Notes: generated by a model not told the origin, from the sequence alone. A stretch of DNA of 64,000 nt from Dehalococcoidia bacterium (GCA_045562535.1 JBJKVP010000006.1:88413-152412), one strand, 5' to 3'; positions 49,147 through 64,000 are shown, counted from the first letter of the stretch. Program-made: numbers and translations.

Positions 49147-49210
49147 AAAACCCCAATGATTAGAATTGTTTATATGTTTTTATAATATAACAGGGACCAG
49201 GTGAGGTTGA

Positions 49211-49882
49211 TTGGTGTCACAGAACGACGGGATTTTCCAGGCACAAGAAATGGTGGGGGCTATAGATCTTGGTGCTTTACTCAATTTAACTATCGACCCT
49301 GTATTTGGTTATGTATTCATCTTGATTGGAATAGCCTTATGTCTTATTGGGTATATTTTATACCGATTTATGATTGCATTAACCGTAGCTGTAGCATCAG
49401 GGACGGCCTTTTTTATTTTTGGCCCGACTTTCGGATTGGAATCTGGGCCTTTATGGATGGCTGCAATCGGAGTCTTTTTAATGTTATTAATAGTAGGTTG
49501 GCTGCTATACCACACTGCGGTTTTTATTATAGGCCTCGCCGCAGGAGCGTCCGTAGGGGTCTGGTTTTGGTTATTAGGTGCGGGTGAATTTTCTCTAGTT
49601 CAAACAATTACAGATTTATCTATAAGAAGAAGTGATATGTTTGCTTTGATAGCTACTGCAGCTGTTCCAGGTATTGCGATAGGGATTGTCGCTGTATCCT
49701 GGGAGCGTCGTTTGATTACTCTCATTGCTGTCATATTAGGGGGGACATTTATTTCCTTTGGAATAAGACATAGCCAAATTGGCGACCCTATTTCTCAATG
49801 GGCCCCTATTATAGCTGGTTTAACTATGGGGCTCGGCTTGTTCCTAAATGGGCGCAGTAGAGAAAAGGGAAACGCTCAATGA
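49211..49882 (+). CDS. polytopic membrane protein (6-7 TM), function unknown
   Basis: 223-aa hydrophobic ORF. The alternative-frame ORF 49201..49587 is rejected. Confidence 0.5.
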   Translation: MVSQNDGIFQAQEMVGAIDLGALLNLTIDPVFGYVFILIGIALCLIGYILYRFMIALTVAVASGTAFFIFGPTFGLESGPLWMAAIGVFLMLLIVGWLLYHTAVFIIGLAAGASVGVWFWLLGAGEFSLVQTITDLSIRRSDMFALIATAAVPGIAIGIVAVSWERRLITLIAVILGGTFISFGIRHSQIGDPISQWAPIIAGLTMGLGLFLNGRSREKGNAQ

Positions 49883-49903
49883 TGTATTTGATAAAATCGA
49901 ATT

Positions 49904-50554
49904 ATGCGTAGCGATGAGAAGGTACCACTTTTTATTGGAACATTGAATCCAGCTAAAAGAGAGAGGCTTGCTGGATGCTTTTCTTCTTGGCAATTCCATT
50001 TAGACTTTCCTAGAGGTATTAAACTACACGAGATTCCAGAAGAAACAGGAGACACCCATAAATCTAATGCTGTGGAGAAAGCCAAACATTGGTCTTCTTG
50101 GGCAAGCGGACACGCGGTGTCCAGTGATGGAGGCTTACAAATTCCGATATTGAACAATAATTGGGACAGTGTGTATACTCATCGGTTTGCAGGCCCTGAT
50201 GCAAATGACCAAGATCGTATAGATGCTTTGCTCGAACGGATGTCTGAGTATAGTGATGATGAGCGTTCTGCTTATTGGGAAGAGTCGGTCGCGCTAGGAT
50301 ATAAGGGCCGATTAATCAAGGAATGGTCAGTAAAGAGTAAACTAGGAAGAATAGCTTTGAAGCCATCTGAAATTAAAATCCACGGGTTTTGGGCTGCAAG
50401 CATTTGGGTATTCCCAGATATTGGTAAATCTTATACTGAGCTAAATCAAAAGGAACTTCAAAAGATTGGGGATCCTTGGGTTAATATTAAGAATAAGATA
50501 AAAATGTGGATGGACAATGATGGATGGGATAGTACTGTACTTAGACTACGGTAA
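49904..50554 (+). CDS. divergent Ham1/RdgB (ITPase)-like protein
   Basis: Collinear with RdgB blocks as recalled: FIGTLNPAKRERL (ATGNxGKxxE), EETGDTHKSNAVEKAK (EETGxTFxENAxxKA), SSDGGLQIP (ADDSGL), AGPDANDQDRIDALLERM. The C-terminal FGYDPIF and SHR motifs are not conserved (FWAASIWVF, GDPW). Confidence 0.5.
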   Translation: MRSDEKVPLFIGTLNPAKRERLAGCFSSWQFHLDFPRGIKLHEIPEETGDTHKSNAVEKAKHWSSWASGHAVSSDGGLQIPILNNNWDSVYTHRFAGPDANDQDRIDALLERMSEYSDDERSAYWEESVALGYKGRLIKEWSVKSKLGRIALKPSEIKIHGFWAASIWVFPDIGKSYTELNQKELQKIGDPWVNIKNKIKMWMDNDGWDSTVLRLR

Positions 50555-51451
50555 GGAAGCCATACCTTTTTCTTTTTCGATCAGACCGTCTTTTACTAAA
50601 GTATTAATCAGTTTTTCAAACCATATTTTATCTGTATGGGCAGAATAATCGGGTTTTATTAGGGAACCTAGTTTATCAATTTCAATAGGATCAATACGGC
50701 CCCGGAGTTCTTCGACAATTCTACCTCTGTAAAATCGGTTCGAGCCAACAAAAGTAGGATTTGTTTTCTTAGAAGATGGTGTGCCCATCTTGGTATTGTT
50801 TTTCGTAAAAACAAATCTTATCGAGGCTGAACAATTCAGTACTATGGGGCATGATTCACAGCTAGGTTTTCGGGATGTGCAAACGGTTGCACCTAAATCC
50901 ATTAAGGCTTGATGCCAATCTGGCGTTTTTGTTTTTTCTGGGAGGTACTTGGTTGCAGTATCCCATGCTAATTTATCAGTATCAAAAGATGATCCGTGGT
51001 CGACCCTGCCGATAACGCGTTTGATATTTATGTCTACCACCGGGACTCTTAGTTTAAAAGCGAAATTAGCTATTGCTGAAGCCGTATAACGACCAATACC
51101 TGGAAGCGCAACTAGGGATTCGAGTGATTTGGGGACTTGCCCATTATGATTTTGAACAATGATTTGAGCAGTTCTATGTAGGTTAACTGCGCGTTTGTTA
51201 TATCCCATTCCAGACCACTCTCTAATCACTGTACTCTTCGAAGCTTGTGCTAAGGAATACACATCTGGGAACTGTCGAATAAAAGAATCGTATTTATCGA
51301 TAACTCTACTAACTTGTGTTTGCTGTAGCATGATTTCCGAGACTAATATTTTGTAAGGGTCGTTAGTTTCTCTCCAAGGCAATTTGCGTCCAACATCTTT
51401 GTACCAAGAAAGTAATTGTTTGTGGAAGTATGTGTGATTTTGTTCGGACAT
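50546..51451 (-). CDS. mutY: HhH-GPD adenine glycosylase, MutY-like (short form without obvious NUDIX-like domain)
   Basis: LLSWYKDVGRKLPWR, ILVSEIMLQQTQV, LPGIGRYTASAIANFAF, FeS loop CTSRKPSCESCPIVLNC. Confidence 0.75.
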   Translation of the reverse strand: MSEQNHTYFHKQLLSWYKDVGRKLPWRETNDPYKILVSEIMLQQTQVSRVIDKYDSFIRQFPDVYSLAQASKSTVIREWSGMGYNKRAVNLHRTAQIIVQNHNGQVPKSLESLVALPGIGRYTASAIANFAFKLRVPVVDINIKRVIGRVDHGSSFDTDKLAWDTATKYLPEKTKTPDWHQALMDLGATVCTSRKPSCESCPIVLNCSASIRFVFTKNNTKMGTPSSKKTNPTFVGSNRFYRGRIVEELRGRIDPIEIDKLGSLIKPDYSAHTDKIWFEKLINTLVKDGLIEKEKGMASLP

Positions 51452-51618
51452 AATTAATATTCATTATGCGAATTATGAAACAGATGATCAATAGGATAAA
51501 TTGAACAACTTAATATATATGGAAATTCGTATAAATAGGTTGACGTCTGAATATAGGGTTAAGTAGAATTACCGGGTTGGGGGATAATTGATCTTATTCT
51601 TCACAGAAGGAGAATTCA

Positions 51619-52794
51619 ATGACAGGGACATTAAAAGGAAAAGCGGCTTTGGTAGGGGTTGGTTGGACTCCTGCTCGTAGAAAATGGCCGGATAAAACAC
51701 AAAAAGGTATGCAGGCAGACGTTGCCGCGATGGCAATCAAGGATGCAGGATTGCGCCCAGAGGACATCGATGGTCTGGTTACAGAAGCACCCGGAGGGGA
51801 AGACGCCAACAACTGGCCAGCTATAATGTCCGATTATTTAGGAATTAAGCCTAATATGGCCAGCGGAGTCAACAATATGGGCGCTACCGGTACTACCGGA
51901 ATAGTTCTTGCGTCTACTTGGGTTTCCAGCGGTCTTGCTGAGACAGTTCTACTCGTTTTTGGAGGTAATCAAGGGACCCAACCCAGAGTTGCTCCTAGGC
52001 CTAATCCATTTGTGGATCCATATGGCCCAGTTGTTGCTGCAAACGGTTGGTATGCTCAGGTCGCACGTCGACACGCTTTCGAGTATGGAACTACAGACGA
52101 AATGAGATTTAAAGTAGCAGCTGATCAGAGATTTAACTCACAAGTGACCCCAGGATCTGCTTTTCTTGAGCAGCCGATTACGGTACAGGACGTTGCTGAT
52201 TCTCGATATGTTGCAGACCCTCTCAGATTGCTCGAATGTGTTATGCCTTGTGCCGGAGGTGGGGCAATGATTGTCACAACACCGGAAAAAGCTCGAGCGA
52301 TGAAAAACAAACCAGTTTACATGCTTGGAGCTGGCCATCATACAGATCATAATGATTTGAGTTGGGCAGACCGAATTACAAGGACACCAGCCGTTGTTTC
52401 TGCTCCTAGAGCGTTCAACATGGCAGGGCTCAGTCCGAAAGATATGGATTTCGCTCAGATCTATGATTGCTATACCATAACGGTTATGGTGACTCTCGAA
52501 GACGCTGGGTTTATGCCTAAAGGTGAGTCAGGACCTTGGTACCAAGAGACTGATACTACCTATAAGGGAGATTTCCCAGTTAATACGCACGGTGGCCAGT
52601 TGTCTTACGGACAGCAGGCAGGAAACACCGGCGGCTTCTCACAGCCTATGGAAGCAACTCTCCAATTAATGGGGCGTGGTGGCGAAAGACAAGTTAAGGA
52701 TGCAACAACAGGATTCGTGAATGGTTGAGGCGGCATTTTGAGCAAGTTTTGCTCAATAGTTCTTACCAATGATGAGTCTTTGGCTAATTCTTAG
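51619..52794 (+). CDS. thiolase-superfamily protein (SCP2/Ltp2-like, DUF35 partner) with in-frame TGA at 52726-52728; the conventional model ends at 52728
   Basis: 369-aa ORF with YDCY (HDCF-like) and NTHGGQLS motifs. Gly sits at the usual nucleophile position (NNMGATG). After the TGA the same frame continues GGILSKFCSIVLTNDESLANS-TAG, which looks like the normal thiolase C-terminal strand. The SD of the next gene follows. Confidence 0.6.
52738..52756 (+). promoter_or_regulatory. perfect 7-bp hairpin TTGAGCA-AGTTT-TGCTCAA starting 9 nt after the in-frame UGA (candidate bacterial SECIS)
   Basis: All seven pairs are Watson-Crick. The 5-nt loop AGUUU has G at loop position 2, 20 nt from the U of UGA. 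No U-tract follows, so it is not a typical terminator. Confidence 0.45.
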
Positions 52795-52821
52795 AATATA
52801 AGTTATTAAAGGAGTTTAATC

Positions 52822-53253
52822 ATGGCAGAACAAAAAGCACCTCAGAAGCCAGTTCCAATTGCTGACGCGGTTACCGCGCCTTTTTGGGAGGCTACTAAAG
52901 AAGGTAAATTGATGGTCCAGAGGGATATCGACAGCGGAAAGGTGTTCTTTTATCCAAGAGAGCGAAGCCCTTATACGCTATCAGATCGTCTTGAGTGGGT
53001 TGAAGTTAGTGGTAAAGCACGGATATATAGTTTTATCGTGGTGAGGCAGCCGGGCAACCCAGCTTTCACTCCAGATGTTCCTTATATCTATGCGATAATC
53101 CAGCTGGATGAAGGCCCTAGGATGAATGGTAATGTTAATGGTATTGACATAGAGGATGTTGAGATCGATATGCAAGTCGAAGTTTACTTCGAAGAGCGTG
53201 GAGATCAAATGATCCCGCAGTGGAAACCTGTAGGAGCACCAGATCCAAGTTAA
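52822..53253 (+). CDS. DUF35 OB-fold protein (thiolase/aldolase partner), zinc-ribbon cysteines absent
   Basis: 143 aa with APFWEATKEGKLMVQR...FFYPRE...EWVEVSGKARIYSFIVV, the DUF35 layout. The protein contains no Cys at all. AAGGAG SD. Confidence 0.75.
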   Translation: MAEQKAPQKPVPIADAVTAPFWEATKEGKLMVQRDIDSGKVFFYPRERSPYTLSDRLEWVEVSGKARIYSFIVVRQPGNPAFTPDVPYIYAIIQLDEGPRMNGNVNGIDIEDVEIDMQVEVYFEERGDQMIPQWKPVGAPDPS

Positions 53254-53297
53254 CTAATGGTCTATAAGGTGATAATAAACCTATAAGAAACAAAAAT

Positions 53298-53330
53298 TCT
53301 GCTGAGTCACAGTCTCGGCAGAATTTTTTT
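53298..53330 (+). terminator. Rho-independent terminator after the thiolase-like/DUF35 pair
   Basis: TCTGCTGAG-TCACAGT-CTCGGCAGA (9-bp stem including one G-U) followed by ATTTTTTT. Confidence 0.65.
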
Positions 53331-53365
53331 ATGCTTAATTACTTTATGTGTAAAGGAGATTCTAA

Positions 53366-53881
53366 ATGGATAATGTTGAAATTATTAAAACCCTAATGGA
53401 ACATGTGCGCCAATCTTTTCTAGACGTCATGGAAAATGTAGATCAAGAGGTTGCTGATTGGCTTCCCCCGGGAGAAGCTCATCCGATACGAATGAGTAAC
53501 CTGCATTGTTTATGGGCTGAAGATCGTTTTATAAATGTTTTTCTCCAAGAGGCTCCAACAATTTGGAGTGTTATTGGACTTGAGGAAAAAACTGGGTTGA
53601 TACCTGGAAGACTTCCCAGCGCGGAATGGGCCCGTTCTACGCCTATTGATATCAATCAACTTAGAGAAGTCTATATGCCCGCTCTTTTTGAAGGAACTGA
53701 TAAATATTTAGGTAGTTTAAAAGCCGATGATTTAGATAAGCCGGTGAAATCTGATGTTGCAGATTTAAATGGTCTAAAAGCTGGAGAAATATTGATTCGA
53801 TTTGCACTTCATAATGCTAACCATATAGGAGAGATCGCATCTCAAAAAGGGACGCAAGGTCTTAAGGGTTACAGCTTTTAG
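53366..53881 (+). CDS. DinB-family (DinB/YfiT-like four-helix-bundle) protein, copy 1
   Basis: 171 aa. N-terminal helix ...FLDVMENVDQEVADWLPPGEAHPI and C-terminal HNANHIGEIASQKG, typical of the DinB_2 style. Confidence 0.7.
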   Translation: MDNVEIIKTLMEHVRQSFLDVMENVDQEVADWLPPGEAHPIRMSNLHCLWAEDRFINVFLQEAPTIWSVIGLEEKTGLIPGRLPSAEWARSTPIDINQLREVYMPALFEGTDKYLGSLKADDLDKPVKSDVADLNGLKAGEILIRFALHNANHIGEIASQKGTQGLKGYSF

Positions 53882-53891
53882 GAGGACTCAG

Positions 53892-54425
53892 ATGGATGGC
53901 TTACACGTTATAAAAACATTGATCGTAAGGATGCATGAATCTTTTCTAGATGTTATGGAAAATGTGGATCAAGAGGTTGCTGATTGGCTTCCAACTGGAG
54001 AAGCTCATCCGATTCGAACGAGCGCTGCTCATATTTTGTGGGTGGAGGATGCCTTCGTTAACGCGGTGATAAGGGAATCGACTACAGTATGGGCTGACTT
54101 AGGGTTGCAAGAGAAAACAGGGATTCGCCCAGGCCCTATTCCTAATTTGGAATGGGCGCAGACTACCAAAATCGATATCGAAGAATTAAAGAAAGTATAC
54201 GTAAATGAGCTTTTTGAAAATACAGAGGCATATATAGGGAATTTGGACCCAAAAGACTTAAATCGAGATATTGATATTGAAGGGAAAGGCCGGGCTCTCA
54301 AGCGTGTTCTTATTGGAACCAGGGTTTCAGATATATTGCTTACTCTTTCAATTCACAGCGCTAACCATATAGGAGAGATCGCATCTCAAAAAGGGACTCA
54401 AGGTCTTCAAGGGTACAGTTTCTAG
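53892..54425 (+). CDS. DinB-family protein, copy 2 (tandem paralogue)
   Basis: 177 aa. Shares FLDVMENVDQEVADWLP.GEAHPIR and SANHIGEIASQKGTQGL.GYSF with copy 1. Confidence 0.7.
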   Translation: MDGLHVIKTLIVRMHESFLDVMENVDQEVADWLPTGEAHPIRTSAAHILWVEDAFVNAVIRESTTVWADLGLQEKTGIRPGPIPNLEWAQTTKIDIEELKKVYVNELFENTEAYIGNLDPKDLNRDIDIEGKGRALKRVLIGTRVSDILLTLSIHSANHIGEIASQKGTQGLQGYSF

Positions 54426-54493
54426 ATAAACATTTGGAGATAGGTACGGACACTTATAACTAATATAACCCTTATAAAACTGCAGGAGAATGC

Positions 54494-55348
54494 ATGTCAA
54501 GATTTGTACCGATTGATCCTATTCTTGAAAAAGGGTACAACGTACGCCTTTTGGCTGACGATTTTGAAGGCCTCATAAGTACTTGGGCAGCAAGGAGTGA
54601 GAAATTTCGAAGTACAGCTAATAGCTCACTTAACTGTCAATACGATGAAGGTGAAAAAAATAAACTAGATTTATTTCGTTCTGGTAAGCCCAATGCACCA
54701 TTATATGTATTTGTGCATGGTGGGTATTGGCAAGGAGGAGATAAGGCTTTTTATAGTTTCATTGCCGAGCCTTTTGTTAAATCTGGAATTGATGTTGCTA
54801 TAATCGGTTACCAATTATGCCCTGAATCAAGTATGACAGAGATCGTCAACCAAATTCGAACTGCATTAATATGGCTCTGGAAGAATTCTCGCGATTATGC
54901 TATTTCAAAGGATCGTATTAATATTTCTGGTCATTCCGCTGGTGGTCATATTACTGGCATGGTATTGGCTACAGATTGGCAACAAATCTCTTCGGATTTA
55001 CCGAAAAATCTTGTCAAAACAGGTATTCCAATTAGTGGACTATATCAACTAGAACCACTTAGAAAGACTAGCATTGCTGAGGCTCTTGGTTTGGATGACG
55101 CTGAAACGATGGCTTTGAGTCCACATTTTTTGGAACCCATAACCACAGCGCCAATTCTGGTAATTCTTGGCGAAGCCGAAACGCCAGCATTCCATTGGCA
55201 AACTGACCAGTTTATTGAGAAATGGAAACTTAACGAAGCACTCGTTGAATATCATTCCGAGCCTGGCGCTGATCATTTTGAGGTTATAGAGAGATTAGCT
55301 AGGGAAGACACTCAAATTTTTGATAGAATAAAAAGATGGATCTTGTAA
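54494..55348 (+). CDS. alpha/beta hydrolase, arylformamidase (kynurenine formamidase)/esterase-like
   Basis: 284 aa. Oxyanion region VFVHGGYWQGGDK and nucleophile elbow GHSAGGH. Confidence 0.7.
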   Translation: MSRFVPIDPILEKGYNVRLLADDFEGLISTWAARSEKFRSTANSSLNCQYDEGEKNKLDLFRSGKPNAPLYVFVHGGYWQGGDKAFYSFIAEPFVKSGIDVAIIGYQLCPESSMTEIVNQIRTALIWLWKNSRDYAISKDRINISGHSAGGHITGMVLATDWQQISSDLPKNLVKTGIPISGLYQLEPLRKTSIAEALGLDDAETMALSPHFLEPITTAPILVILGEAETPAFHWQTDQFIEKWKLNEALVEYHSEPGADHFEVIERLAREDTQIFDRIKRWIL

Positions 55349-55370
55349 TACATAGTGGTAGGAGAGCTTA

Positions 55371-56903
55371 ATGGTAAAAATTAGGTACTTTTTGGGGATG
55401 ATGGCTATAGCCTCTTTATTTATTTTTGTAGCGTGTGGAGGCGGAGAAACAAGTTCAAGTGAGACGGAGACTGTGAAACCTCAAGAAACGACCTCTACGG
55501 CATCTACAGAGGCACCTGCTCAAAAGGCAGAGGAGCCTAAGAAAGAAGAACCTAAGCCTGAGCCTAAGAAAGAAGAACCTAAGCCAGAACCTAAAAAAGA
55601 GGAGCCTAAGGCAGAACCTAAAAAAGAAGAGCCTAAGGCAGAACCTAAAAAAGAAGAGCCTAAACCAGAGCCCAAGGCAGAACCTAAGAAAGAAGAACCT
55701 AAACCAGATCCAGCTCAATATGCTGGACCAAATTTGGGCTTAAATACCAACAAGGTGTTCCCAATTCATGTACCAGCAGATGCAAGTGCTAAAGCAAGAC
55801 TGGTTAGCCTCGGTATTAACGTGCCCCAGACAGGCTCACTTGAGGAAGCGAATCATGAGTTTATGGCAGGATTAAATGTAGACCCAGGTTATAAAGAGCG
55901 TTGGGTGGAGCATCAGACCAGTATAAATAGCGTATTGGGAGCCTACCCGAACTTTATGATCATAGCTTATGATAAGAGTGGAACAGACGAAGATATTCAA
56001 GCAATTGGAAACCGACTTACCGAACTTCAATGGCCTGGTGACACTAATTCTAGTATGTATGTAGAGAACTGGACCGTTGATGCTCTGAACCAATACAAAA
56101 CGTGTCTTACTTCCGGTGACACAGGGGTAAGGAGAACGTCCACAAGCAACCCGCACAGTATGTGCATTATGGAATACCAAAAGTTTCGTGCCTATCGGTA
56201 CGATGCCGGTCTTCCGACAGCAAAAAATCACGCGCAATTAGCTATCCATGATGCCCATGAATATTTCCATCATTACCAGAAAGCCCATGCTCTGGAACGA
56301 GGGTTAGACCTTGCTTCAGATCCAGACAACCCTGAGACAACGGTACAAGCTCCAAGATGGTGGATAGAAGGAGCAGCGGTTAGTTTTTCCCATGCATGGT
56401 ATAAAGCTAACTGGGAGTCTCTATCATTTATGAAAGATCAAACAGTCATGTGGTATGGCCAAGAATACGATTTAGCGACTGCTAATATAGGTACTGTAGC
56501 CACAGCTCAAGATTTCAAAAACACAAAGAAACTAGTTAGAGGCGAGTTAGAAGGACATGAAATAGGTGCTGGTTGTACTTCAGACTGGAAACTACAAGAG
56601 AGTGAAGAAGACTCTGCAACGGAAACAAGGTGTTTCTCAAGTCTACAGGCTGTTGCTTATATGGCACATCTAACCTCATGGAAAACTGTTTGGATTGACA
56701 TACCCCAAGACTATTACGATCTCGGATTTTGGGGATCTTTTGAAAAGCATATAGGCATGGAAAAACAAGAATTCTATGACGCGTATAATAACCTCATGAC
56801 ATCTGGAGACGTAAACGATGCACCACCTGAAGGATGGACTGTTCCAGAAGGTGCAATATCAGAATATGCTGACTTTTTGAAAATAGTACCTGAGTCGGAT
56901 TGA
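55371..56903 (+). CDS. lipoprotein with KKEEPK(P/A)EP linker and HExxH...E (gluzincin-like) C-terminal domain, paralogue A
   Basis: Signal and lipobox YFLGMMAIASLFIFVAC-GGG, 6 linker repeats, HDAHEYFHH...WWIEGAAVSF. Confidence 0.65.
   Translation: MVKIRYFLGMMAIASLFIFVACGGGETSSSETETVKPQETTSTASTEAPAQKAEEPKKEEPKPEPKKEEPKPEPKKEEPKAEPKKEEPKAEPKKEEPKPEPKAEPKKEEPKPDPAQYAGPNLGLNTNKVFPIHVPADASAKARLVSLGINVPQTGSLEEANHEFMAGLNVDPGYKERWVEHQTSINSVLGAYPNFMIIAYDKSGTDEDIQAIGNRLTELQWPGDTNSSMYVENWTVDALNQYKTCLTSGDTGVRRTSTSNPHSMCIMEYQKFRAYRYDAGLPTAKNHAQLAIHDAHEYFHHYQKAHALERGLDLASDPDNPETTVQAPRWWIEGAAVSFSHAWYKANWESLSFMKDQTVMWYGQEYDLATANIGTVATAQDFKNTKKLVRGELEGHEIGAGCTSDWKLQESEEDSATETRCFSSLQAVAYMAHLTSWKTVWIDIPQDYYDLGFWGSFEKHIGMEKQEFYDAYNNLMTSGDVNDAPPEGWTVPEGAISEYADFLKIVPESD
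55530..55712 (+). repeat. in-frame 27-nt tandem repeat array (about 6 units, KKEEPK[P/A]EP)
   Basis: Direct reading of the sequence. Units are cct aag aaa gaa ga[a/g] cct aag [cc/gc]a ga[a/g]. Confidence 0.9.
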
Positions 56904-56948
56904 GAAATATAATTATGGCTTGAGCAGCCGATAGGAGAGTTAAGTTTA

Positions 56949-58460
56949 ATGGTAAAAGCTAAGTACTTTTTGGGGATGATGGCTATAGCCTCTTTATTTA
57001 TTTTTGTAGCGTGTGGAGGCGGAGAAACAAGTTCTAGTGAGGCGGAGAGTCCGAAACCTCAGGAAACGACCTCTACGGCATCTACAGAGGCACCTGCCCA
57101 AAAGGCAGAGGAGCCAAAGAAAGAAGAACCTAAGCCAGAGCCTAAGAAAGAAGAGCCTAAGCCAGAACCTAAGAAAGAAGAACCTAAGCCAGAGCCTAAG
57201 AAAGAAGAGCCTAAGCCAGAACCTAAGAAAGAAGAACCTAAACCAGAACCGACACCTGCGCCTATTATTCTTCCAAGCGCTGACCTTTTTACTAATTTCT
57301 CGGCATGTGGTTGGGATTCAAGTTATGCGATTGATAACGGCTCGCTGTTTCTTTCATCGACTGAAACCCCAGGGAGTAAATCTGTTGGGAATTTAAATCT
57401 TGATTTCATACCTTCTATGGTTGGGCAGACACATTCTAATCTTAAAAATCAAACGTTAGGTTTTGCTTTCCATGACTATACCAGAACAGAAATAGATATA
57501 AATAAGTCAATACATATGGTAGCTATACCTGCAGGGAAAACGCCATTTAAGTTGGATTTAAACATAGCTGTGTCAGGGAAAGGATCAGATGGTAACTCAT
57601 GTTCGACTACAATAACGGAACAATTTACCCGTAGCGATGATTTTTATCCTAGCGCAGAACTGTCTATACCCAGCAACGCTATACCCGATAAAGACAAATA
57701 TAAGCCATTTTCAATTCCTGCACCTACAGCTCAAGCTTTATTCTTAGCTACATCGCAGAGTAACTACGACGATAATTATGGAAAAGTCCGCGTAAATAAT
57801 ACTGAAGGTTACTTTGTAAAGAAGCCCCCGAGCACTCTAAGAGTGGGTCTTTTTGGAGACGTCAAATCTGATGACTATGAAACAATTCGTGATTATATCG
57901 AAGTCCTCGCAGTGGTAGCTCCTGATTTAGACATAGCTTGGGCAAATAATATTTCAGAAGTCACGTTTCCGATGCATTTGCTTTCATGCACTGAGCTCAT
58001 AAATGAGACTATCGACCAGTATTGCAATACGTCCGGCCCATCTGGCGGATTTTCGGATCAGTGGGGCTCGGGTAATCTCGCGACAGGTTGGGGTTTCATT
58101 CGTGTATCAGATCAGGCTATGGGATCCAGACATACGTTAACCCATGAGTTGGGACATGCTGTGGGTCTTTGGCATTCTGGAGTTGGCAGTAGTAGCATGG
58201 GGCCACCCAATAACCAGGCTGGTCACTGGGCTGCTCATGATTTAATGGTTGTCGCTTTAGTTAATAATTCTGGTGTGGTATCAGGTCAAACCCGTGAAGA
58301 AATTAGAGTTGCATTTAATATAGCGAATGATGAATTACAAGGCTTTATTGACAATCCTGCTACATTGTCAAATGCACCTGATCCTGTTTGGGTTGAGCTT
58401 GGAGATAAGCTTAAGGCCCAATTCAATAGCTCATCAATGGGGAAACGGTTAGGAAGATAA
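56949..58460 (+). CDS. lipoprotein with KKEEPKPEP linker and metzincin-type zinc-protease motif, paralogue B
   Basis: Same leader as A and C, 5 linker repeats. C-terminal HTLTHELGHAVGLWH (HExxHxxGxxH) followed by SSSMGPP. Confidence 0.7.
   Translation: MVKAKYFLGMMAIASLFIFVACGGGETSSSEAESPKPQETTSTASTEAPAQKAEEPKKEEPKPEPKKEEPKPEPKKEEPKPEPKKEEPKPEPKKEEPKPEPTPAPIILPSADLFTNFSACGWDSSYAIDNGSLFLSSTETPGSKSVGNLNLDFIPSMVGQTHSNLKNQTLGFAFHDYTRTEIDINKSIHMVAIPAGKTPFKLDLNIAVSGKGSDGNSCSTTITEQFTRSDDFYPSAELSIPSNAIPDKDKYKPFSIPAPTAQALFLATSQSNYDDNYGKVRVNNTEGYFVKKPPSTLRVGLFGDVKSDDYETIRDYIEVLAVVAPDLDIAWANNISEVTFPMHLLSCTELINETIDQYCNTSGPSGGFSDQWGSGNLATGWGFIRVSDQAMGSRHTLTHELGHAVGLWHSGVGSSSMGPPNNQAGHWAAHDLMVVALVNNSGVVSGQTREEIRVAFNIANDELQGFIDNPATLSNAPDPVWVELGDKLKAQFNSSSMGKRLGR
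57108..57251 (+). repeat. in-frame 27-nt tandem repeat array (5 units, alternating two synonymous variants = 54-nt super-period)
   Basis: Direct reading of the sequence. Confidence 0.9.
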
Positions 58461-58481
58461 ATTCAAAGATAGGAGAGTTAA

Positions 58482-59903
58482 ATGATAACCTCTAGGTACT
58501 TTTTGGGGATGATGGCTATAGCCTCTTTATTTATTTTTGTAGCGTGTGGAGGCGGAGAAACGAGTTCTAGTGAGACTGAGACTGTGAAACCTCAAGAAAC
58601 GACCTCTACGGCATCTACAGAGGCACCTGCCCAAAAGGCAGAGGAGCCTAAGAAAGAAGAGCCTAAGGCAGAACCTAAAAAAGAAGAACCTAAGGCAGAA
58701 CCTAAGAAAGAAGAACCTAAACCAGAACCTAAGAAAGAAGAGCCTAAACCAGAACCAGAACCGCTTGCGCCATATGCGGGACTTGCAGTAACTTGTGAGG
58801 ACAAGACTACTCATACCTATTGCATATCTCCAGACCTAGCGACCCCTCCAGACGGTAAGCCTACCGATCCCTGGGGTACTAAACTTGATTATTCACCTGA
58901 GATATTCTGTGGTTCTGATGTAAGCGACAGGACTTGTCTTTGGTATGCAAAAAGCGTTGTCGCGACATTCCAGGAGTACGGTCTATATGCTCCTACTGAA
59001 TACTGGGTAGTCGGTGCAGATGTTGAAGCAAATCAAGTAGGTCTTGCCGGAGTTTACTGTGATCGTCGTGTAGCGAGAGACCAGGTTTGGGGGAAGAATC
59101 AAGAGCAATGTCTGGCTGATGAAAATGATCCCAATGGCTATAAAATGGAATTTTACAGGAAACTGAGTCACGGAGTTATAAACGAGGGTAATAATGGGAA
59201 CTCTGCAGCTTTGAGCGGTGACGCTCCAAATGGCTATATGAAGTATTACGCATCAGTGTCGCCTGGCTTCCATTTTCTCGATGTGGGCATTCCTATTGGG
59301 CCTGGGACGCGACATGGTGGGATATCAGGAGAAGTTGACCAGAAAATTGTTTTCCATGAGGGCTACCATTCCTTCCAAGGAGGCCACATCTTGACTATGG
59401 ATGACTATAGTACACCAGAAGATGAACGAAGCGCTGTAAGAGGCCCGACCTGGTGGAATGAGGGTTCAGCTGAGTGGATGGCGTATGTTGGAATGTTCTC
59501 AGCGTTGGAAAATCGTAAATTAGACCTTGTAACCACGGAACTGGGTATCGACTCTAAATTTTCTTTCGAAAAGGAAATGTCGGAAAAGATGAGACAAGGT
59601 AAGCTGAATATGGAGCGGAATTGCCCTGGTCAGGGGATCAAAGATCTTAGTTACTCCAATGCATGTTACTCAATGGGTAATCCAGTCGTCTATGAACTCG
59701 GTGCTTGGGCCGTTGCCTACCTACATGACAAGAAAGGTTCAGCCTTTAGCGCGGAATTTTATGCACAACTTGAAGAATTGGGTTGGGAAGGCGCATTTGT
59801 GGCGACCTTCGGAATCTCATCTGAAGACTTCTATGTTGAGTTTGATGAATTTCTTAAGCTACCTCTGAGTGAACAAATGGCTATATTGCCTGATTATGCA
59901 TAA
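58482..59903 (+). CDS. lipoprotein with KKEEPK(A/P)EP linker and HExxH...E (gluzincin-like) domain, paralogue C
   Basis: Same leader, 4 linker repeats, VFHEGYHSF...PTWWNEGSAEWMAY. The C-terminal FG.S.E.FY..F block is shared with A. Confidence 0.65.
   Translation: MITSRYFLGMMAIASLFIFVACGGGETSSSETETVKPQETTSTASTEAPAQKAEEPKKEEPKAEPKKEEPKAEPKKEEPKPEPKKEEPKPEPEPLAPYAGLAVTCEDKTTHTYCISPDLATPPDGKPTDPWGTKLDYSPEIFCGSDVSDRTCLWYAKSVVATFQEYGLYAPTEYWVVGADVEANQVGLAGVYCDRRVARDQVWGKNQEQCLADENDPNGYKMEFYRKLSHGVINEGNNGNSAALSGDAPNGYMKYYASVSPGFHFLDVGIPIGPGTRHGGISGEVDQKIVFHEGYHSFQGGHILTMDDYSTPEDERSAVRGPTWWNEGSAEWMAYVGMFSALENRKLDLVTTELGIDSKFSFEKEMSEKMRQGKLNMERNCPGQGIKDLSYSNACYSMGNPVVYELGAWAVAYLHDKKGSAFSAEFYAQLEELGWEGAFVATFGISSEDFYVEFDEFLKLPLSEQMAILPDYA
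58641..58763 (+). repeat. in-frame 27-nt tandem repeat array (about 4 units)
   Basis: Direct reading of the sequence. Confidence 0.9.
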
Positions 59904-59914
59904 AGGGTGGCTTG

Positions 59915-61264
59915 ATGGAAAGAGAATCGTCGGTCAATAAACTGTATCCTTTTCTTAGTTTTGTTCTACTCACGGTTTTTATTGCTTGTTCAAGTCCTGA
60001 CGTTGCGGATGACGAGAGTTCGCCTACATCAACGATACCAGTAGTAGAAGATAGCGCTAAACAATCTGACGGGGAACGATCAAGAAAAGAAACAGATGGT
60101 TCATCCGGCGACCGTTCGGGAAGATACCCAGAAGTGAAGCCGGCCAACGAATTTGTACCACAGAAGGTAATAGACCGATATCCCGTGTGGGCAGAAAACT
60201 GTACAGGAAGCGGCCCTGTGATGTTTACTAATTCACCGATGAGAATTGAAGATATCAAAAATCTTACTCCCTACGGCCAAGTGGTAGGAGGGCATGTTAC
60301 ACCAATAGATCACATGTATTTTGAACCCAAAGACAGATCTTTAGGAAGAGATGTTTATGAGGTGAGAGCGATTCAAGATGCAATAATCTTTGATCTTTCC
60401 TCAAGAGATTTTAATGAAGCCAACGAAACAAAATTACGTGAATTCCGGGTTGATATGGCACATACATGTACCTTTTCTAGTTATCTTGATCTCCTTACAT
60501 CTCTGACCCCAGAGCTTGAAAAAGAATGGGCTAAGTCTGAAGGGGGTAGAACAGGTCCTTGGAAAGGAATTTCCGTTAAAGCAGGTCAACTAATTGGATA
60601 TATTGGTGCTCAAACTCTGGACTTTGGGGTTTACGATTACGGGATTGAACTTCCTGGCTTCATTAACCCTTCTGCTTACGCAATGAGAGAACCTTGGAAA
60701 ATCCATACAGTAGATCCTTTCCAGTACTTCCCCACAGAAATTCGAGAAGCTTTGCTTAAGAAAATGATTAGAGATGCTGAACCACGGGCGGGGAAAATTG
60801 ATTACGATGTAGACGGTACGATATCCGGCAATTGGTTTCAGCAAGGAACAGATTGGTACAACGGTATTGATCAGCGTAAATATTGGGACGGGCACTTATC
60901 AGTTGCACCCCATGAAATAGATCCTACTTTATGGAGGATTGGGGTGGGCTCCCTGGATACTGAGGATAACAACTTTATTATATTCGGTGACCAAACTCCG
61001 CTTGAAGTTAATGTTAATTTAGAGCCTGTAACTTATGAACTCCGAAGATATTGGGTTAATATACCAGCCAAACCTGACAAGCGATGGTGGCAAGAACCTT
61101 ACGATGAAACAGATGTATATGGGGTATACATTGCTCCAGAAACTGTTGGTTATGTTTTGATCGCATTGGAAGACGAACGATTACTTCGGGCAGAAGTGTT
61201 TTTGGGCAAAGCTAAAGAGGAGATTCTTGGGTTTACTAGCGATGCTCGTTTATACGAAAGATAA
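59915..61264 (+). CDS. lipoprotein, uncharacterised family (PIDHMYF ... AGQLIGYIGAQTLDFGVYDY)
   Basis: Lipobox LLTVFIAC-SS, acidic/Ser-rich spacer. ATG 59915 (AAGGGTGG upstream). Paralogous motifs occur in 62480..63505 and 63516..64000. Confidence 0.55.
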   Translation: MERESSVNKLYPFLSFVLLTVFIACSSPDVADDESSPTSTIPVVEDSAKQSDGERSRKETDGSSGDRSGRYPEVKPANEFVPQKVIDRYPVWAENCTGSGPVMFTNSPMRIEDIKNLTPYGQVVGGHVTPIDHMYFEPKDRSLGRDVYEVRAIQDAIIFDLSSRDFNEANETKLREFRVDMAHTCTFSSYLDLLTSLTPELEKEWAKSEGGRTGPWKGISVKAGQLIGYIGAQTLDFGVYDYGIELPGFINPSAYAMREPWKIHTVDPFQYFPTEIREALLKKMIRDAEPRAGKIDYDVDGTISGNWFQQGTDWYNGIDQRKYWDGHLSVAPHEIDPTLWRIGVGSLDTEDNNFIIFGDQTPLEVNVNLEPVTYELRRYWVNIPAKPDKRWWQEPYDETDVYGVYIAPETVGYVLIALEDERLLRAEVFLGKAKEEILGFTSDARLYER

Positions 61265-62464
61265 ATGGGAACACAGAAATTGAATGCAGATGTGATCGTT
61301 ATCGGTGCTGGCATAGTGGGGTGTTCGGCCGCTCTCCATCTTGCGGAGGCAGGTATTTCTACCTTGGTATTGGAGAAAGGTGAAATCTCTGGTGAAGCTT
61401 CAGGGGTGAACATGGGAGGGCTTGGAGGAGCAGGTTGGGGCAAATCCCCCTCACTCCAAGAACATTTGACAATGGGCAGTTTGGATATTTTTAAAAGGCT
61501 CCAAAACGAGCTGGGATATGATCTTGAGTTTCGTCAGTCTGGCTCTTTTACGGCCGTCCATAATGAGGTGCAATACGCCTACGTTAAAGAACAAATACTG
61601 GAAGGGCAAAACAACGGGTTCAATCTTGAACTAATGAGTTCATATGAAGCGAGAGCACTAGAACCTGAGCTGAGTCCAGATATGCTTGGATATGTATATA
61701 GTCGTTTCAGAGGACAGGCTGATCCTTTAAAAACTACTCGGGCGTTCGGGCAAGCCGCGATTCAGGCGGGCGCGACCATAGAAACGGGTACCGAAGTCAC
61801 GTCGATGAAGCCACAGAACAAGGCGTGGAAATTAGAGACTAACAAGGGTTCCTTCGAGTCTGGATCTGTTATTTTTGCGGCTGGAGCGTGGAGTAAAGTA
61901 CTTGGGAAAATGGTTGGGGTAGAAATCCCAATTGAACCAGTGGTTGGTCAGATGTGGTCTACGGAACCTCTTCCTCCGAGAATTTTTGGAACGATTGGCT
62001 CATTTGAATCGCGGTTCCATTGGAGCAAAAATTTATATGCAGACATAGGAGCGCCTCCTGAACTAACCCATTCAAACGGCCAACGTTTGACAAGACATCT
62101 CTACGGCAGGCAAAGGAAAAGCGGTGAAATTATATTCGGTGGTGATAGAAGAAATGTTGGCTTCAACAAGACCATTGAAAGCTCCGGAATTGACGTCAAC
62201 AAAGGACATGCCACAGAGATACTACCGCTACTTATTGATCTTCCTATCGTGACTACTTGGGCAGGCCTCATGCCATTCTCAATGGATGGGCATCCGATCA
62301 TTGGAAGGGTGCCAAATAATGAAAATTTATTCATCGCAACCGGTTTGGCATCCTCAGGTTTCGGAAGAGGGCCAGGCGCTGGTATGTTAATAGCAGACCT
62401 GGTTGCAAAAGGGATTGCTAATCCTGTTTTACACGAGTCTGATTTGGCCCGATTTGCTGATTGA
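61265..62464 (+). CDS. FAD-dependent oxidoreductase, DAO family (glycine/D-amino-acid/sarcosine-oxidase-like)
   Basis: DVIVIGAGIVGCSAALHLAEAG dinucleotide motif, 399 aa, no signal peptide. Its ATG directly abuts the TAA of the preceding gene. Confidence 0.8.
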   Translation: MGTQKLNADVIVIGAGIVGCSAALHLAEAGISTLVLEKGEISGEASGVNMGGLGGAGWGKSPSLQEHLTMGSLDIFKRLQNELGYDLEFRQSGSFTAVHNEVQYAYVKEQILEGQNNGFNLELMSSYEARALEPELSPDMLGYVYSRFRGQADPLKTTRAFGQAAIQAGATIETGTEVTSMKPQNKAWKLETNKGSFESGSVIFAAGAWSKVLGKMVGVEIPIEPVVGQMWSTEPLPPRIFGTIGSFESRFHWSKNLYADIGAPPELTHSNGQRLTRHLYGRQRKSGEIIFGGDRRNVGFNKTIESSGIDVNKGHATEILPLLIDLPIVTTWAGLMPFSMDGHPIIGRVPNNENLFIATGLASSGFGRGPGAGMLIADLVAKGIANPVLHESDLARFAD

Positions 62465-62479
62465 GTTACGAAGCGCTAC

Positions 62480-63505
62480 TTAATTTTGCTCCACTGTACT
62501 CTTTAAACAGCCCGGAGCTACCATACTTGACTCGTCGTATGCTATCTCTTGTTCATGCACTATTTCATATTTTGCCATCAAATCAACTACGGCTGCTTGT
62601 ATCTGTGACTCAACTGGCTTAGCCAGACTGAGAGTAGGGCAATAACTTACTGTATTAATCGATCTAGTTTCATAATTTTCGATGTATTGAAATAAAGTGA
62701 TTTCAGTACGGCCATTAATTTTTGTACCATTCTCCATCCAGTTTCCTATATAACCAATAGCATCTCCAGCTTTAACCTCGGTACCGATTTCTACGTTGAC
62801 GCCATCGATTTGTAATGATTTATCACAGCGAATCGGGGCAGCTCCTTCCCTATCACAATCAATACTTACGATATGGTCAATGCTTACCCCCCAAGAAGAA
62901 TGTAAGGTAGGAGAGATTATGATCTCCCAATCATCTTGTACATATCCATCTGAAGGTTGCCATGTTAATTGAGTAATTAGTCCATCAATTGGAGCAACTA
63001 CTACCGTCTCTGCCGGGCCTCTGAACTCGAAAGTTGGATTGGCATAATTGTATGATTGCCCGCTCCTACTCATCCGTTTTTGACTCGCTCCAAATTCAAT
63101 AAATATTGGTAATGTTAGGCTGGTATCAAAAAGTAAATCTCCAAAAGTTCCGTCCGCCTCGTTGTAAGGTCCCAGATTCATTATTCCTAGATTATGTAAT
63201 TTAGGCATTTCTGAATTATCATATTTTTGATACTGGCCTTGTGCTTTTGCTGCCTCTGATGTGGCATTTGGCGCACATGCCATCTCTGTGCATACTAAAA
63301 CACCCATATTGGGACTTTCTTCCATACATGTACACTGGTTACAAAAATTAGAGCCTGTGTCGTTACCAGACCATCCGGCTTCTACAACCTCTCCTCCACT
63401 TAAAGTACAATTCTTTGGGGTTTCCTTAACTACTTCTGTACTTGTGCTACAACCCACCACTAGAAGCATTAATCCTGCTAAGAATATATATGTTAGATAT
63501 CTCAT
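62480..63505 (-). CDS. lipoprotein with Cys-rich N-terminal module, same uncharacterised family
   Basis: Start at ATG 63505 (MRYLTYIFLAGLMLLVVGC-STS lipobox). Contains CTLSGGEVVEAGWSGNDTGSNFCNQCTCMEESPNMGVLVCTEMAC, then SIDHIVS and AGDAIGYIG. Confidence 0.55.
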   Translation of the reverse strand: MRYLTYIFLAGLMLLVVGCSTSTEVVKETPKNCTLSGGEVVEAGWSGNDTGSNFCNQCTCMEESPNMGVLVCTEMACAPNATSEAAKAQGQYQKYDNSEMPKLHNLGIMNLGPYNEADGTFGDLLFDTSLTLPIFIEFGASQKRMSRSGQSYNYANPTFEFRGPAETVVVAPIDGLITQLTWQPSDGYVQDDWEIIISPTLHSSWGVSIDHIVSIDCDREGAAPIRCDKSLQIDGVNVEIGTEVKAGDAIGYIGNWMENGTKINGRTEITLFQYIENYETRSINTVSYCPTLSLAKPVESQIQAAVVDLMAKYEIVHEQEIAYDESSMVAPGCLKSTVEQN

Positions 63506-63515
63506 GCGGCTTCCC

Positions 63516-64000
63516 CTAAGATTTTGGTATTTCACAGAAGTCACTGGAACTGACTGCTTTTCCTTCAAGTAGTTTTTGCGTCTCAGCACCGAATAGGTTG
63601 GCCCAACATATTCCGTGGCTAGCTGTTGCAGCGTACTGAGGGAAATCTCTCTCCATTATCTCTGATACATTATTTTTCTCACGCAAATCATAGACCCCGA
63701 AGTCTAAATAAGTATTGGTGGAATGCCCTATGGCGTACCCCAATACCTCTCCCGACTCTACGAAGTATTGGCCATCTGGCATGAAGGTTTCCCTTGAATC
63801 ATTTACTAGCACTGGTACGCTTGCAGTGATTTCGGACCATCGGTCAGTGATTTGGGCAATATGATCTATCATGATTTTTATTCCGCAAGGATGATGAAAA
63901 TGAAGCTTGACCTGCTCTTCATCTGTAGAAGTTTTTCCATGAACGGAGTAGTCCTGCAGCCGACGGCTTGCAGCATATAGACTGAATCCTTCAGCAGGAA
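63516..64000 (-). CDS. partial CDS (N-terminus off-window), paralogue of the two lipoproteins above
   Basis: The frame stays open from 64000 down to the TAG at 63516, and the ORF-track ATG at 63872 is internal. Contains MIDHIAQ and GEVLGYAIGHSTNTYLDFGVYDL. Confidence 0.5.
   Translation of the reverse strand, partial: PAEGFSLYAASRRLQDYSVHGKTSTDEEQVKLHFHHPCGIKIMIDHIAQITDRWSEITASVPVLVNDSRETFMPDGQYFVESGEVLGYAIGHSTNTYLDFGVYDLREKNNVSEIMERDFPQYAATASHGICWANLFGAETQKLLEGKAVSSSDFCEIPKS

Follow-up and report, generated by a model that had tools for sequence, protein, structure and literature searches.

The Erp lipoproteins of Borrelia burgdorferi (OspE, OspF and Elp), which are encoded on cp32 prophages, arise by recombination of one promoter, leader and sorting sequence with many unrelated mature parts (PMC10016077; PMC12242104), and the name Elp itself stands for 'OspE/F-like leader peptide' (PMC12242104). 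In the tandem lpl lipoprotein genes of Staphylococcus aureus, a highly conserved stretch within the open reading frame (ORF) is a site of homologous recombination, such that the evolutionary unit is offset from the ORF and trees of its two halves disagree (Tsuru and Kobayashi, 2008, PMC2568036). Here we describe a related arrangement in a 64,000-nucleotide (nt) stretch of DNA from a Dehalococcoidia bacterium (GCA_045562535.1, JBJKVP010000006.1:88413-152412; the whole stretch is called the window below), in which three tandem genes, A, B and C, begin with the same 5' leader and continue into different putative zinc metallopeptidase domains, or bodies. We propose that the leaders of this trio have probably been homogenised by recombination and the bodies exchanged independently of them, so that leader and enzyme are separable modules of tethered zinc peptidases.

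Borrelia Erp is the closest functional precedent, and the lpl cluster of S. aureus the closest mechanistic one. A conserved leader is joined to unrelated mature parts in Erp as in the trio; however, the Erp unit includes a promoter and an operator, whereas the trio cassette has no promoter and carries a long linker instead. Several prophage plasmids of a host-associated spirochaete also carry Erp genes at allelic positions, while the trio lies in a predicted chromosomal operon of free-living marine Chloroflexota, its mature parts are putative metallopeptidases, and several alternative leader types are found on the same bodies. The lpl genes are homologous throughout and their conserved site is central, whereas the conserved part of the trio is a 5' leader and the enzymes downstream are non-homologous or barely homologous; as in lpl, the 3' end of one body, the spacer and the start of the next leader act as one unit. 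A conserved N-terminal delivery module (a lipobox followed by a disordered region) with swappable C-terminal domains is also found in polymorphic toxins, including myxobacterial SitA (PMC8546572; PMC3482391). SitA proteins, however, have folded escort domains of ~375 amino acids (aa) and nuclease C-termini with immunity genes, in contrast to the signal peptide plus linker, the putative peptidases and the lack of immunity genes in the trio. Finally, the replacement flexible genomic islands of aquatic prokaryotes are loci for exposed structures that are swapped between clonal frames by homologous recombination (PMC4033161). A step in sequence identity between the window and a related contig (L006, described below) is similar, but the islands exchange whole gene clusters and the trio exchanges sub-genic modules. 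Contigs related to the window are labelled Dehalococcoidia or SAR202, and we found no description in the literature consulted linking SAR202 with lipoprotein peptidases of this kind.

All three ORFs were confirmed on the plus strand (Table 1). An earlier reading made from the DNA alone (the sequence-only reading) had reported that each gene opens with the same module of a Shine-Dalgarno (SD) sequence, a lipoprotein signal, an S/T-rich spacer and tandem KKEEPK(P/A)EP repeats, and every one of these features was found where it had been placed. In a three-way alignment this module, which is ~280-335 nt long, retains 87-98% identity per 60-nt bin (52-59 matches), and ~300 nt past the start codon identity drops sharply to ~25-45%, the background level within the bodies; the assertion that the leader DNA is better conserved than the enzymes thus stands, and chance cannot account for it. 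Two blocks that the same reading described as identical in all three copies are indeed so, one of 66 nt (55385-55450 = 56963-57028 = 58496-58561) and one of 35 nt, which occurs exactly three times (at 55485, 57063 and 58596). No further copy of the leader block with 20 or fewer mismatches was found on either strand of the whole window. Near-identity of the leaders reaches synonymous sites and SD-proximal non-coding bases, and similarity between copies starts just 12-21 nt upstream of the ATG, the sequence 5' of the SD being gene-specific.

The repeat unit of 27 nt is conserved at 91-92% matches (one unit of A is extended by KAEP), and the linker of ~70-90 aa that it forms part of, included in the cassette, consists of 19-23% Pro, 28% Glu and 19-23% Lys. 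Under the PROSITE PS51257-type lipobox rule, a lipoprotein has a positive n-region, a hydrophobic h-region and a lipobox Cys at position 15-35. A, B and C conform to this rule at Cys22 (IFVAC), as do 73 of the 86 homologues with complete N-termini, and the predicted functions of the leader are lipidation, surface exposure and spacing. The idea that 6, 5 and 4 repeats would hold each enzyme at its own distance from the membrane is not supported, since in other contigs (P0002, P0059, P0055) one gene type ranges from 1 to 6 units, a range to be read with the reservation that short-read assembly may collapse repeats. Base composition was uninformative as to a foreign origin of the leader, with a GC content of 0.44-0.46 compared with 0.42-0.46 in the bodies. 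Within the 35-nt block lies an 8-bp inverted repeat (ACCTCTAC...GTAGAGGC; 55491-55513 and 58602-58624), of which the A and C copies were minus-strand hits in a terminator scan and which shows no sign of function. Out-of-frame or antisense ORFs over the KKEEPK repeats (55455-55718, minus; 57013-57396, plus; 58527-58814, minus) are artefacts of the low-complexity repeat and not genes.

Table 1. Coordinates of the trio, its leaders, bodies and adjoining genes in the window, and the leader types distinguished among related proteins.
Feature	Position	Strand	Details
Gene A, ORF	55371-56903	+	510 aa
K-type leader of A	55359-55706	+	identity of L005 to the window starts at 55697, the junction
A, SD (TAGGAGAG)	55359-55366	+	
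A, ATG	55371	+	
A, signal peptide	55371-55436	+	lipobox Cys22
A, S/T-rich spacer	55437-55535	+	
A, repeats	55536-55706	+	six 27-nt KKEEPK(P/A)EP units
Body of A	55707-56903	+	unannotated M9-related gluzincin-like domain
A, HEYFH	56256-56270	+	
A, WWIEG	56358-56372	+	putative third zinc ligand Glu
Gene B, ORF	56949-58460	+	503 aa
K-type leader of B	56932-57251	+	identity of L003 to the window ends at 57248
B, SD (TAGGAGAG)	56932-56939	+	
B, ATG	56949	+	
B, signal peptide	56949-57014	+	
B, S/T spacer	57015-57113	+	
B, repeats	to ~57250	+	five 27-nt units
Body of B	57252-58460	+	N-terminal beta-sandwich (FN3-like) and metzincin-like catalytic domain
B, HELGHAVGLWH	58143-58175	+	
B, putative Met-turn Met	58197-58199	+	
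Gene C, ORF	58482-59903	+	473 aa
K-type leader of C	58470-58763	+	identity of L014 to the window starts at 58770
C, SD (TAGGAGAG)	58470-58477	+	
C, ATG	58482	+	
C, signal peptide	58482-58547	+	
C, S/T spacer	58548-58646	+	
C, repeats	to ~58763	+	four 27-nt units
Body of C	58764-59903	+	M9-related gluzincin-like domain
C, HEGYH	59355-59369	+	
C, WWNEG	59451-59465	+	
Esterase	54494-55348	+	alpha/beta-hydrolase (BD-FAE/Abhydrolase_3); 22 nt before A, in the same tightly packed gene run
D	59912-61264	+	lipoprotein with its own unrelated leader; starts 8 nt after C
Leader type K			MVK.(R/K)YFLGMMAIASLFIFVACGGGE; on A, B and C
Leader type P1			MSLSRKLLTITLSLTLFG...; on A, B and C
Leader type P2			MKLxNYLIL...; on B and C
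Leader type P3			...LIALLSxSLWIVGCSSES; on A, B and C
Leader type P4			MIRY...LLLTxSCSG; on A, B and C
Leader type P5			MKKINLYKAFLLLISLS; on A and B

The spacers along the run esterase-A-B-C-D measure only 22, 45, 21 and 8 nt, and neither promoter-like nor terminator-like sites were found on the plus strand between these genes; a strong terminator lies upstream of the array at 53292-53328. The cassette is therefore internal to a predicted operon and carries an SD but no promoter, contrary to its earlier description as promoter-proximal, and the close packing of A, B and C suggests that they are co-transcribed. With D, which has an unrelated leader, following so closely, the sharing of leaders is confined to A, B and C.

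The bodies, in contrast to the leaders, belong to two unrelated kinds of putative enzyme. In those of A and C the HExxH motif is followed by a distal Trp-Trp motif with a Glu, and the key residues are invariant across both family alignments (H184, E185, H188, W218, E221 and G222 among 40 sequences of the A family; H198, E199, H202, W230, E233 and G234 among 27 of the C family), which shows that HExxH is not there by chance. While A and C are only 21% identical in pairwise alignment (E=3e-8), their family profiles match in hhalign at a probability of 99.85% (E=1e-30), and both thus belong to one superfamily as distant homologues. The window copies of A and C match no Pfam or NCBIfam model, and a profile search with A against PDB sequences gave no match, but 17 of the 27 C-family members match Pfam Peptidase_M9. 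One of them, P0147, scores 27.5 bits against PF01752 (cutoff 26) over profile positions 162-287, the profile being matched just over its C-terminal half, which holds the HExxH and the Glu-helix; window C finds P0147 at E=1e-36, and it is through this homologue, transitively, that A and C are linked to M9. In the AlphaFold2 model of A (predicted template modelling score 0.83), helix 172-195 holds HExxH, and the next one, helix 217-238, opens with WWIEG. In family M9 (the bacterial collagenases, clan MA(E) gluzincins) HExxH is followed by a downstream Glu on the next helix, an arrangement that the putative ligand Glu of A and C would match, but A and C lack collagen-binding and PKD domains. From motifs and profiles, A and C are best described as an unannotated, collagenase-related, gluzincin-like family that is not filed under M9, and both are predicted to be peptidases.

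Among the A-family homologues P0013-P0015, P0027, P0047 and P0036, some A-type domains are joined to MORN repeats and not to a lipoprotein linker. One such fusion is on a contig named Candidatus Poseidoniia archaeon, and another homologue of this set is fused to tetratricopeptide (TPR) repeats. A distant C homologue comes from a Planctomycetaceae metagenome-assembled genome (MAG). Given these archaeal-named and planctomycete members, the family therefore reaches past Chloroflexota.

In B, seven positions of the HExxHxxGxxH motif (H298, E299, G301, H302, G305, L306 and H308) are invariant in an alignment of 20 sequences. So is M316 in SSMGPP, 13 residues past the third His, in a part of the model (residues 312-320) where local confidence is below 50. 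Scores against Pfam fall just short of or below the curated thresholds (M57, 20.9 bits with a cutoff of 21; M10, 19.9 bits with a cutoff of 24), and the zinc motif aligns with serralysin and matrix metalloproteinase (MMP) chains in PDB. A Foldseek search with the model of B, which is of low confidence (predicted local distance difference test, pLDDT, 64.5), returned karilysin (4in9_A; E=0.068, probability 0.87, target-normalised template modelling score, TMt, 0.50) for the catalytic part and, from the same low-confidence model, FN3 domains at probabilities of 0.9-0.99. As in the metzincins (serralysin M10B, MMP and karilysin M10A, and M57), the HExxHxxGxxH of B is accompanied by a conserved downstream Met; B differs from them in a low-confidence insert of ~50 residues before the active-site helix, in an extra N-terminal beta-sandwich, and in having no RTX or hemopexin domains. 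Judged by motif and fold comparison, B is metzincin-like, of a different fold class from A and C and unrelated to them, and it too is a predicted peptidase. The metal-ligand motifs and the SSSMGPP of B that the sequence-only reading had picked out, along with its division of the trio into gluzincin-like A and C and metzincin-like B, are thus borne out by these alignments and matches.

Body searches recovered proteins of all three types (~47 for A, ~42 for C and ~29 for B), and almost all are predicted lipoproteins with long linkers that are mostly rich in Pro and Thr. Inspection of the listed sequences led us to assign their leaders to the types given in Table 1, where at least five Pro/Thr-rich types besides K are each found on two or three kinds of body; single-linkage clustering of signal peptides (62% identity) was discarded, as it lumped K, P1 and P2 via the xACGGG(D/E) core that these have in common. 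The K leader is exclusive to the trio. When 1.84 billion representative proteins were searched by phmmer with residues 1-55 of the leader, the matches were confined to proteins of types A, B and C, apart from one junk repeat, and no fourth body type stood behind a K leader among these representatives, in a full-length A search, or among the neighbouring lipoproteins. Unrelated leaders precede the other predicted lipoproteins of the window and of related loci. Across the sequences compared, leader sharing is therefore a trio-specific feature rather than a general property of lipoproteins in these genomes.

The same pattern recurs with other leaders and on other loci. The P5 leaders of an A gene (L005) and of a B gene at another locus (L009) are 95.9% identical from 21 nt upstream of the ATG, and L005 becomes identical with the body of window A at the leader/body junction (Table 1). 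The P2 leaders of solitary, dispersed B and C genes are 79% identical over a stretch that opens 13 nt before the ATG and closes with the linker, and that includes a ~110-nt patch of near-identity. The reciprocal case was observed too: one C body, together with the genes downstream of it, is 99.1-99.8% identical at the nucleotide level in L013, L014 and L015, where it stands behind P2, P1 and K leaders, respectively, and after different upstream genes, and in each the identity starts at the leader/body junction. Two C-body clades can be distinguished, and each occurs with K, P1 and P2 leaders. A further case that we considered, an A body 96% identical to that of the window behind a different leader (P0003), was discounted, its contig being 93% identical over the 5' part of the body and 100% over the other, 3' half and thus either a recombinant or a chimera.

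A few observations adjoin these comparisons. One B-type protein, P0155, has a K-type signal peptide (MVKPRYLLGMMAIATLFIFVACGGGG) and a Pro/Thr/Ala-rich linker that contains PKAEP. This hybrid, perhaps a recombinant of K and Pro/Thr leaders or else an intermediate, implies that the leader itself is divisible. Compared with L015, the C body of the window also has a recombination breakpoint at its 3' end, near 59854, 50 nt before the C stop codon. Past near-identical C bodies lie different genes: D in the window and L006, a PALP enzyme and a luciferase-like gene in L013-L015, and a Mur-ligase-like gene in L007.

Evidence of exchange among leaders comes from L006, a 151-kb contig syntenic with the window that lacks gene A and carries B and C, both with K leaders. 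Four nucleotide variants, CCT>TCT and three within the signal peptide, are common to these two leaders, and none of the three window copies has them. Derived variants held in common by paralogues and missing from their sister-lineage orthologues are a mark of gene conversion, which would here have taken place after the lineages diverged. The leaders are also mosaic. Their central patch occurs as two haplotypes, hap1 and hap2 (ETETVKPQ, EAESPKPQ), and which of the two a leader has does not follow its first five, gene-specific codons: hap1 is found in A and C of the window, hap2 in B of the window and in A of L001, and a C-like hap1 in B of L005. As the 5' flank and codons 1-5 are gene-specific, it appears that most conversion tracts start at about codon 6 and run as far as the last repeat. 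Homology breaks off sharply at the SD and at the end of the linker, and the two parts of the gene give incongruent phylogenies. The upstream sequence of the second A gene of L002 (A2) is that of the window A-B spacer, and the A-B and B-C junctions of the window are ~100% identical in L005 and L003, respectively, which gives independent support for these joins.

Gene content varies along with the leaders. The order esterase-A-B-C of the window is replaced by esterase-B-C in L006, by esterase-A(K)-B'(P1) in L001, and by A'(P1)-A(K)-C(P1) in L002 and L014. Identity between the window and L006 is 80.5% over 46612-53881 and steps to ~95% from ~54360 to 63509, a profile that suggests a recent homologous exchange of ~9 kb taking in the esterase and the peptidase array. 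At the identity step, the window has two tandem DinB_2-like genes (53366-53881 and 53892-54425) and L006 has one, a lineage-specific tandem duplication. In the MAG contig L001, a strong hairpin and T-run terminator (3376-3400) follows the P1-leader B', with no C gene; arrays thus end differently between lineages.

We suggest that A, B and C would be membrane-tethered extracellular zinc peptidases of marine SAR202-like Dehalococcoidia, each encoded by a bipartite gene. The 5' module, which starts at the SD and takes in the whole linker, would be generic and interchangeable, providing the translation start, Sec export, a lipid anchor at Cys22 and a long Pro-rich polyampholyte spacer; the 3' module would be the enzyme, either an M9-like gluzincin (A and C, distantly related) or an unrelated metzincin-like protein (B). 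The leaders of the trio would be kept near-identical via short-tract gene conversion and unequal exchange within the 27-nt repeats, and the bodies would recombine separately, with paralogues or with other-strain alleles of their own type. A recombination tract can run only through homologous DNA and would hence halt at the leader/body junction, and tracts that halt where homology ends would produce sharply bounded cassettes without site-specific machinery. The outcome would be a combinatorial population of leader x body chimeras, with unequal exchange of leaders or bodies in tandem arrays giving rise to variable gene content. The proposal of the sequence-only reading that concerted evolution, gene conversion or a shuffling that sets a 5' cassette before unrelated peptidase domains lies behind the pattern is strongly supported by these data and extended by the related contigs.

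Several points weigh against this account. All comparators are short-read metagenome contigs, and partway along a body two of them, L003 and L005, become ~100% identical to the window; leader repeats as similar as these can yield chimeric assembly paths, and the linkage of upstream and downstream context is uncertain as a result. The first joining of a leader to a non-homologous body is not accounted for by homologous recombination alone. The solitary, dispersed trio genes of some lineages still have a common leader, which fits poorly with conversion driven by proximity and is a hint of selection for a common leader. With regard to the enzymes, a Foldseek search of the A model against PDB gave no significant fold match (best E=0.88, with an M61 aminopeptidase at rank 8 and a query-normalised score, TMq, of 0.26), the placing of A and C in clan MA is putative, being based on motifs and on homology through intermediates, and the model of B is, as noted, of low confidence.

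The hint of selection leads to the explanation that survives best beside recombinational homogenisation, namely that the trio needs one common leader, for instance for a sorting, glycosylation or co-localisation step or to fit the envelope thickness of each lineage, and that leader identity is under active maintenance with recombination as the means. We regard this as somewhat unlikely. It draws on the facts that leader sharing is trio-specific, that it persists where the genes are dispersed over different loci, and that it recurs for six leader types. On the other hand, identity at synonymous sites and at SD-proximal non-coding bases requires recombination anyway, the mixed K/P1 arrays of L001, L002 and L014 indicate that one leader per genome is not obligatory, and one body is found behind at least three leaders.

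A bolder reading, which we consider unlikely, is that marine Dehalococcoidia populations would keep several alternative tethers (charged KKEEPK rods, and perhaps glycosylated Pro/Thr linkers), which frequency-dependent selection would keep reshuffling among the members of a fixed trio of exo-peptidases. If true, the variation could serve in evasion of phages or grazers that recognise exposed tethers, or match the tethers to different envelope architectures, and the exchange of sub-genic cassettes, not the replacement of whole islands, would be the unit of cell-surface variation in an abundant ocean lineage. On this reading the trio may also work as a single co-localised proteolytic assembly, for which a matching tether is needed.

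It is improbable that the repeated leaders, or the leader x body combinations, were created by mis-assembly of metagenomes. The contigs L003 (coverage 1.2) and L005, with their turn to 100% identity, would fit such an artefact, as would the fact that L003, L004 and L005 all end within a leader, and repeat-number variants could be collapsed repeats. However, the window copies carry private differences (9-12 per 165 nt) and their longest exact runs are just 66-72 nt (A-B 72, A-C 69 and B-C 66 nt), and the same leader-body pairs recur over independent samples and assemblers (JGI, ENA megahit k127/k141, SPAdes and an NCBI MAG) and in ~20 database proteins. The long contig L006 has both B and C with K leaders, and a leader/body junction, differing as it does on one side, would need real k-mers.

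Variation between strains at the locus, a conserved leader on variable mature parts, and in-frame tandem repeats that differ in number between contigs together recall the Vlp, Vsp and Vsa lipoproteins of Mycoplasma, which have a conserved 5' region and signal peptide, a variable mature region and in-frame repeats of changing number. These lipoproteins switch by homopolymer tracts in the promoter or by site-specific inversion, and their products are repetitive antigens. The likeness had been drawn by the sequence-only reading and goes no further than analogy, as the locus showed neither an invertible element nor a silent cassette, and no switch based on a homopolymer. That the conserved 5' end serves here to let expression switch, with repeat changes altering protein size, is very improbable, for the three genes are intact and tightly packed in one predicted transcription unit, the cassette has no promoter, homopolymer tract or segment flanked by inverted repeats (the spacers of 21-45 nt were scanned), the neighbouring genes in L006 are all metabolic with no recombinase among them, and the variable parts are putative enzymes with invariant catalytic motifs.

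A cis-regulatory RNA element common to the three genes, such as a riboswitch, a small-RNA target or an attenuator, seems slightly less probable still. Nucleotide identity does take in the SD region, and the 8-bp repeat of the 35-nt block could form a small hairpin, but the folding energy of the leader is no different from that of shuffled sequences (z=0.09), no Rfam match at E<=1 was found in 54000-61500, and conservation runs ~300 nt into the coding sequence and tracks the boundaries of the protein module. Plain tandem duplication of one ancestor, with the leader as its slowest-evolving part and no recombination, can practically be dismissed despite the true distant homology of A and C, since the catalytic domain of B differs in zinc-binding motif and architecture, synonymous sites of the leader are near-identical where the low identity of the bodies would lead one to expect saturation, paralogues have lineage-specific variants in common, and orthologous bodies stand behind unrelated leaders.

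The underlying process, concerted evolution of a leader cassette in a lipoprotein gene family, is a known one. What is new here is a cassette that has no promoter and includes a long linker, its occurrence on putative metallopeptidases of two unrelated clans within a putative chromosomal operon, and the presence of several leader types on near-identical bodies. If homogenisation by recombination is correct, the trio is a natural example of a sub-genic module as the unit of evolution, one leader being homogenised over non-homologous enzymes, with its reciprocal in one enzyme body behind several unrelated leaders. The setting, a free-living and uncultured lineage that is abundant in the ocean, is remote from the pathogens in which leader cassettes were first described. 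The two unannotated metallopeptidase families, M9-related gluzincin and metzincin-like, are candidate surface proteases of the SAR202 type, and the leaders could offer interchangeable natural signal-plus-linker modules for surface display in Chloroflexota. There are practical warnings as well: repeats of this kind break or scramble short-read assemblies, and full-length orthology calls or trees of these genes are misleading.

Beyond the trio, the locus is an apparent cluster of surface hydrolases that adjoins a glycine/sarcosine-oxidase-like FAD enzyme (61265-62464). Lipoprotein D matches no Pfam or NCBIfam family. Two more lipoprotein genes with unrelated leaders lie on the minus strand at 62480-63589 and 63516-63872, and D and these two have a weak M23-like motif in common, V(K/E)AGxxIGY...LDFGVYD. 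Elsewhere in the window, a 758-aa protein (33097-35373, plus strand) combines a signal of twin-arginine-like type (RRDFLR) with a lipobox Cys after it, and it may be a lipoprotein oxidoreductase exported by the twin-arginine (Tat) pathway.

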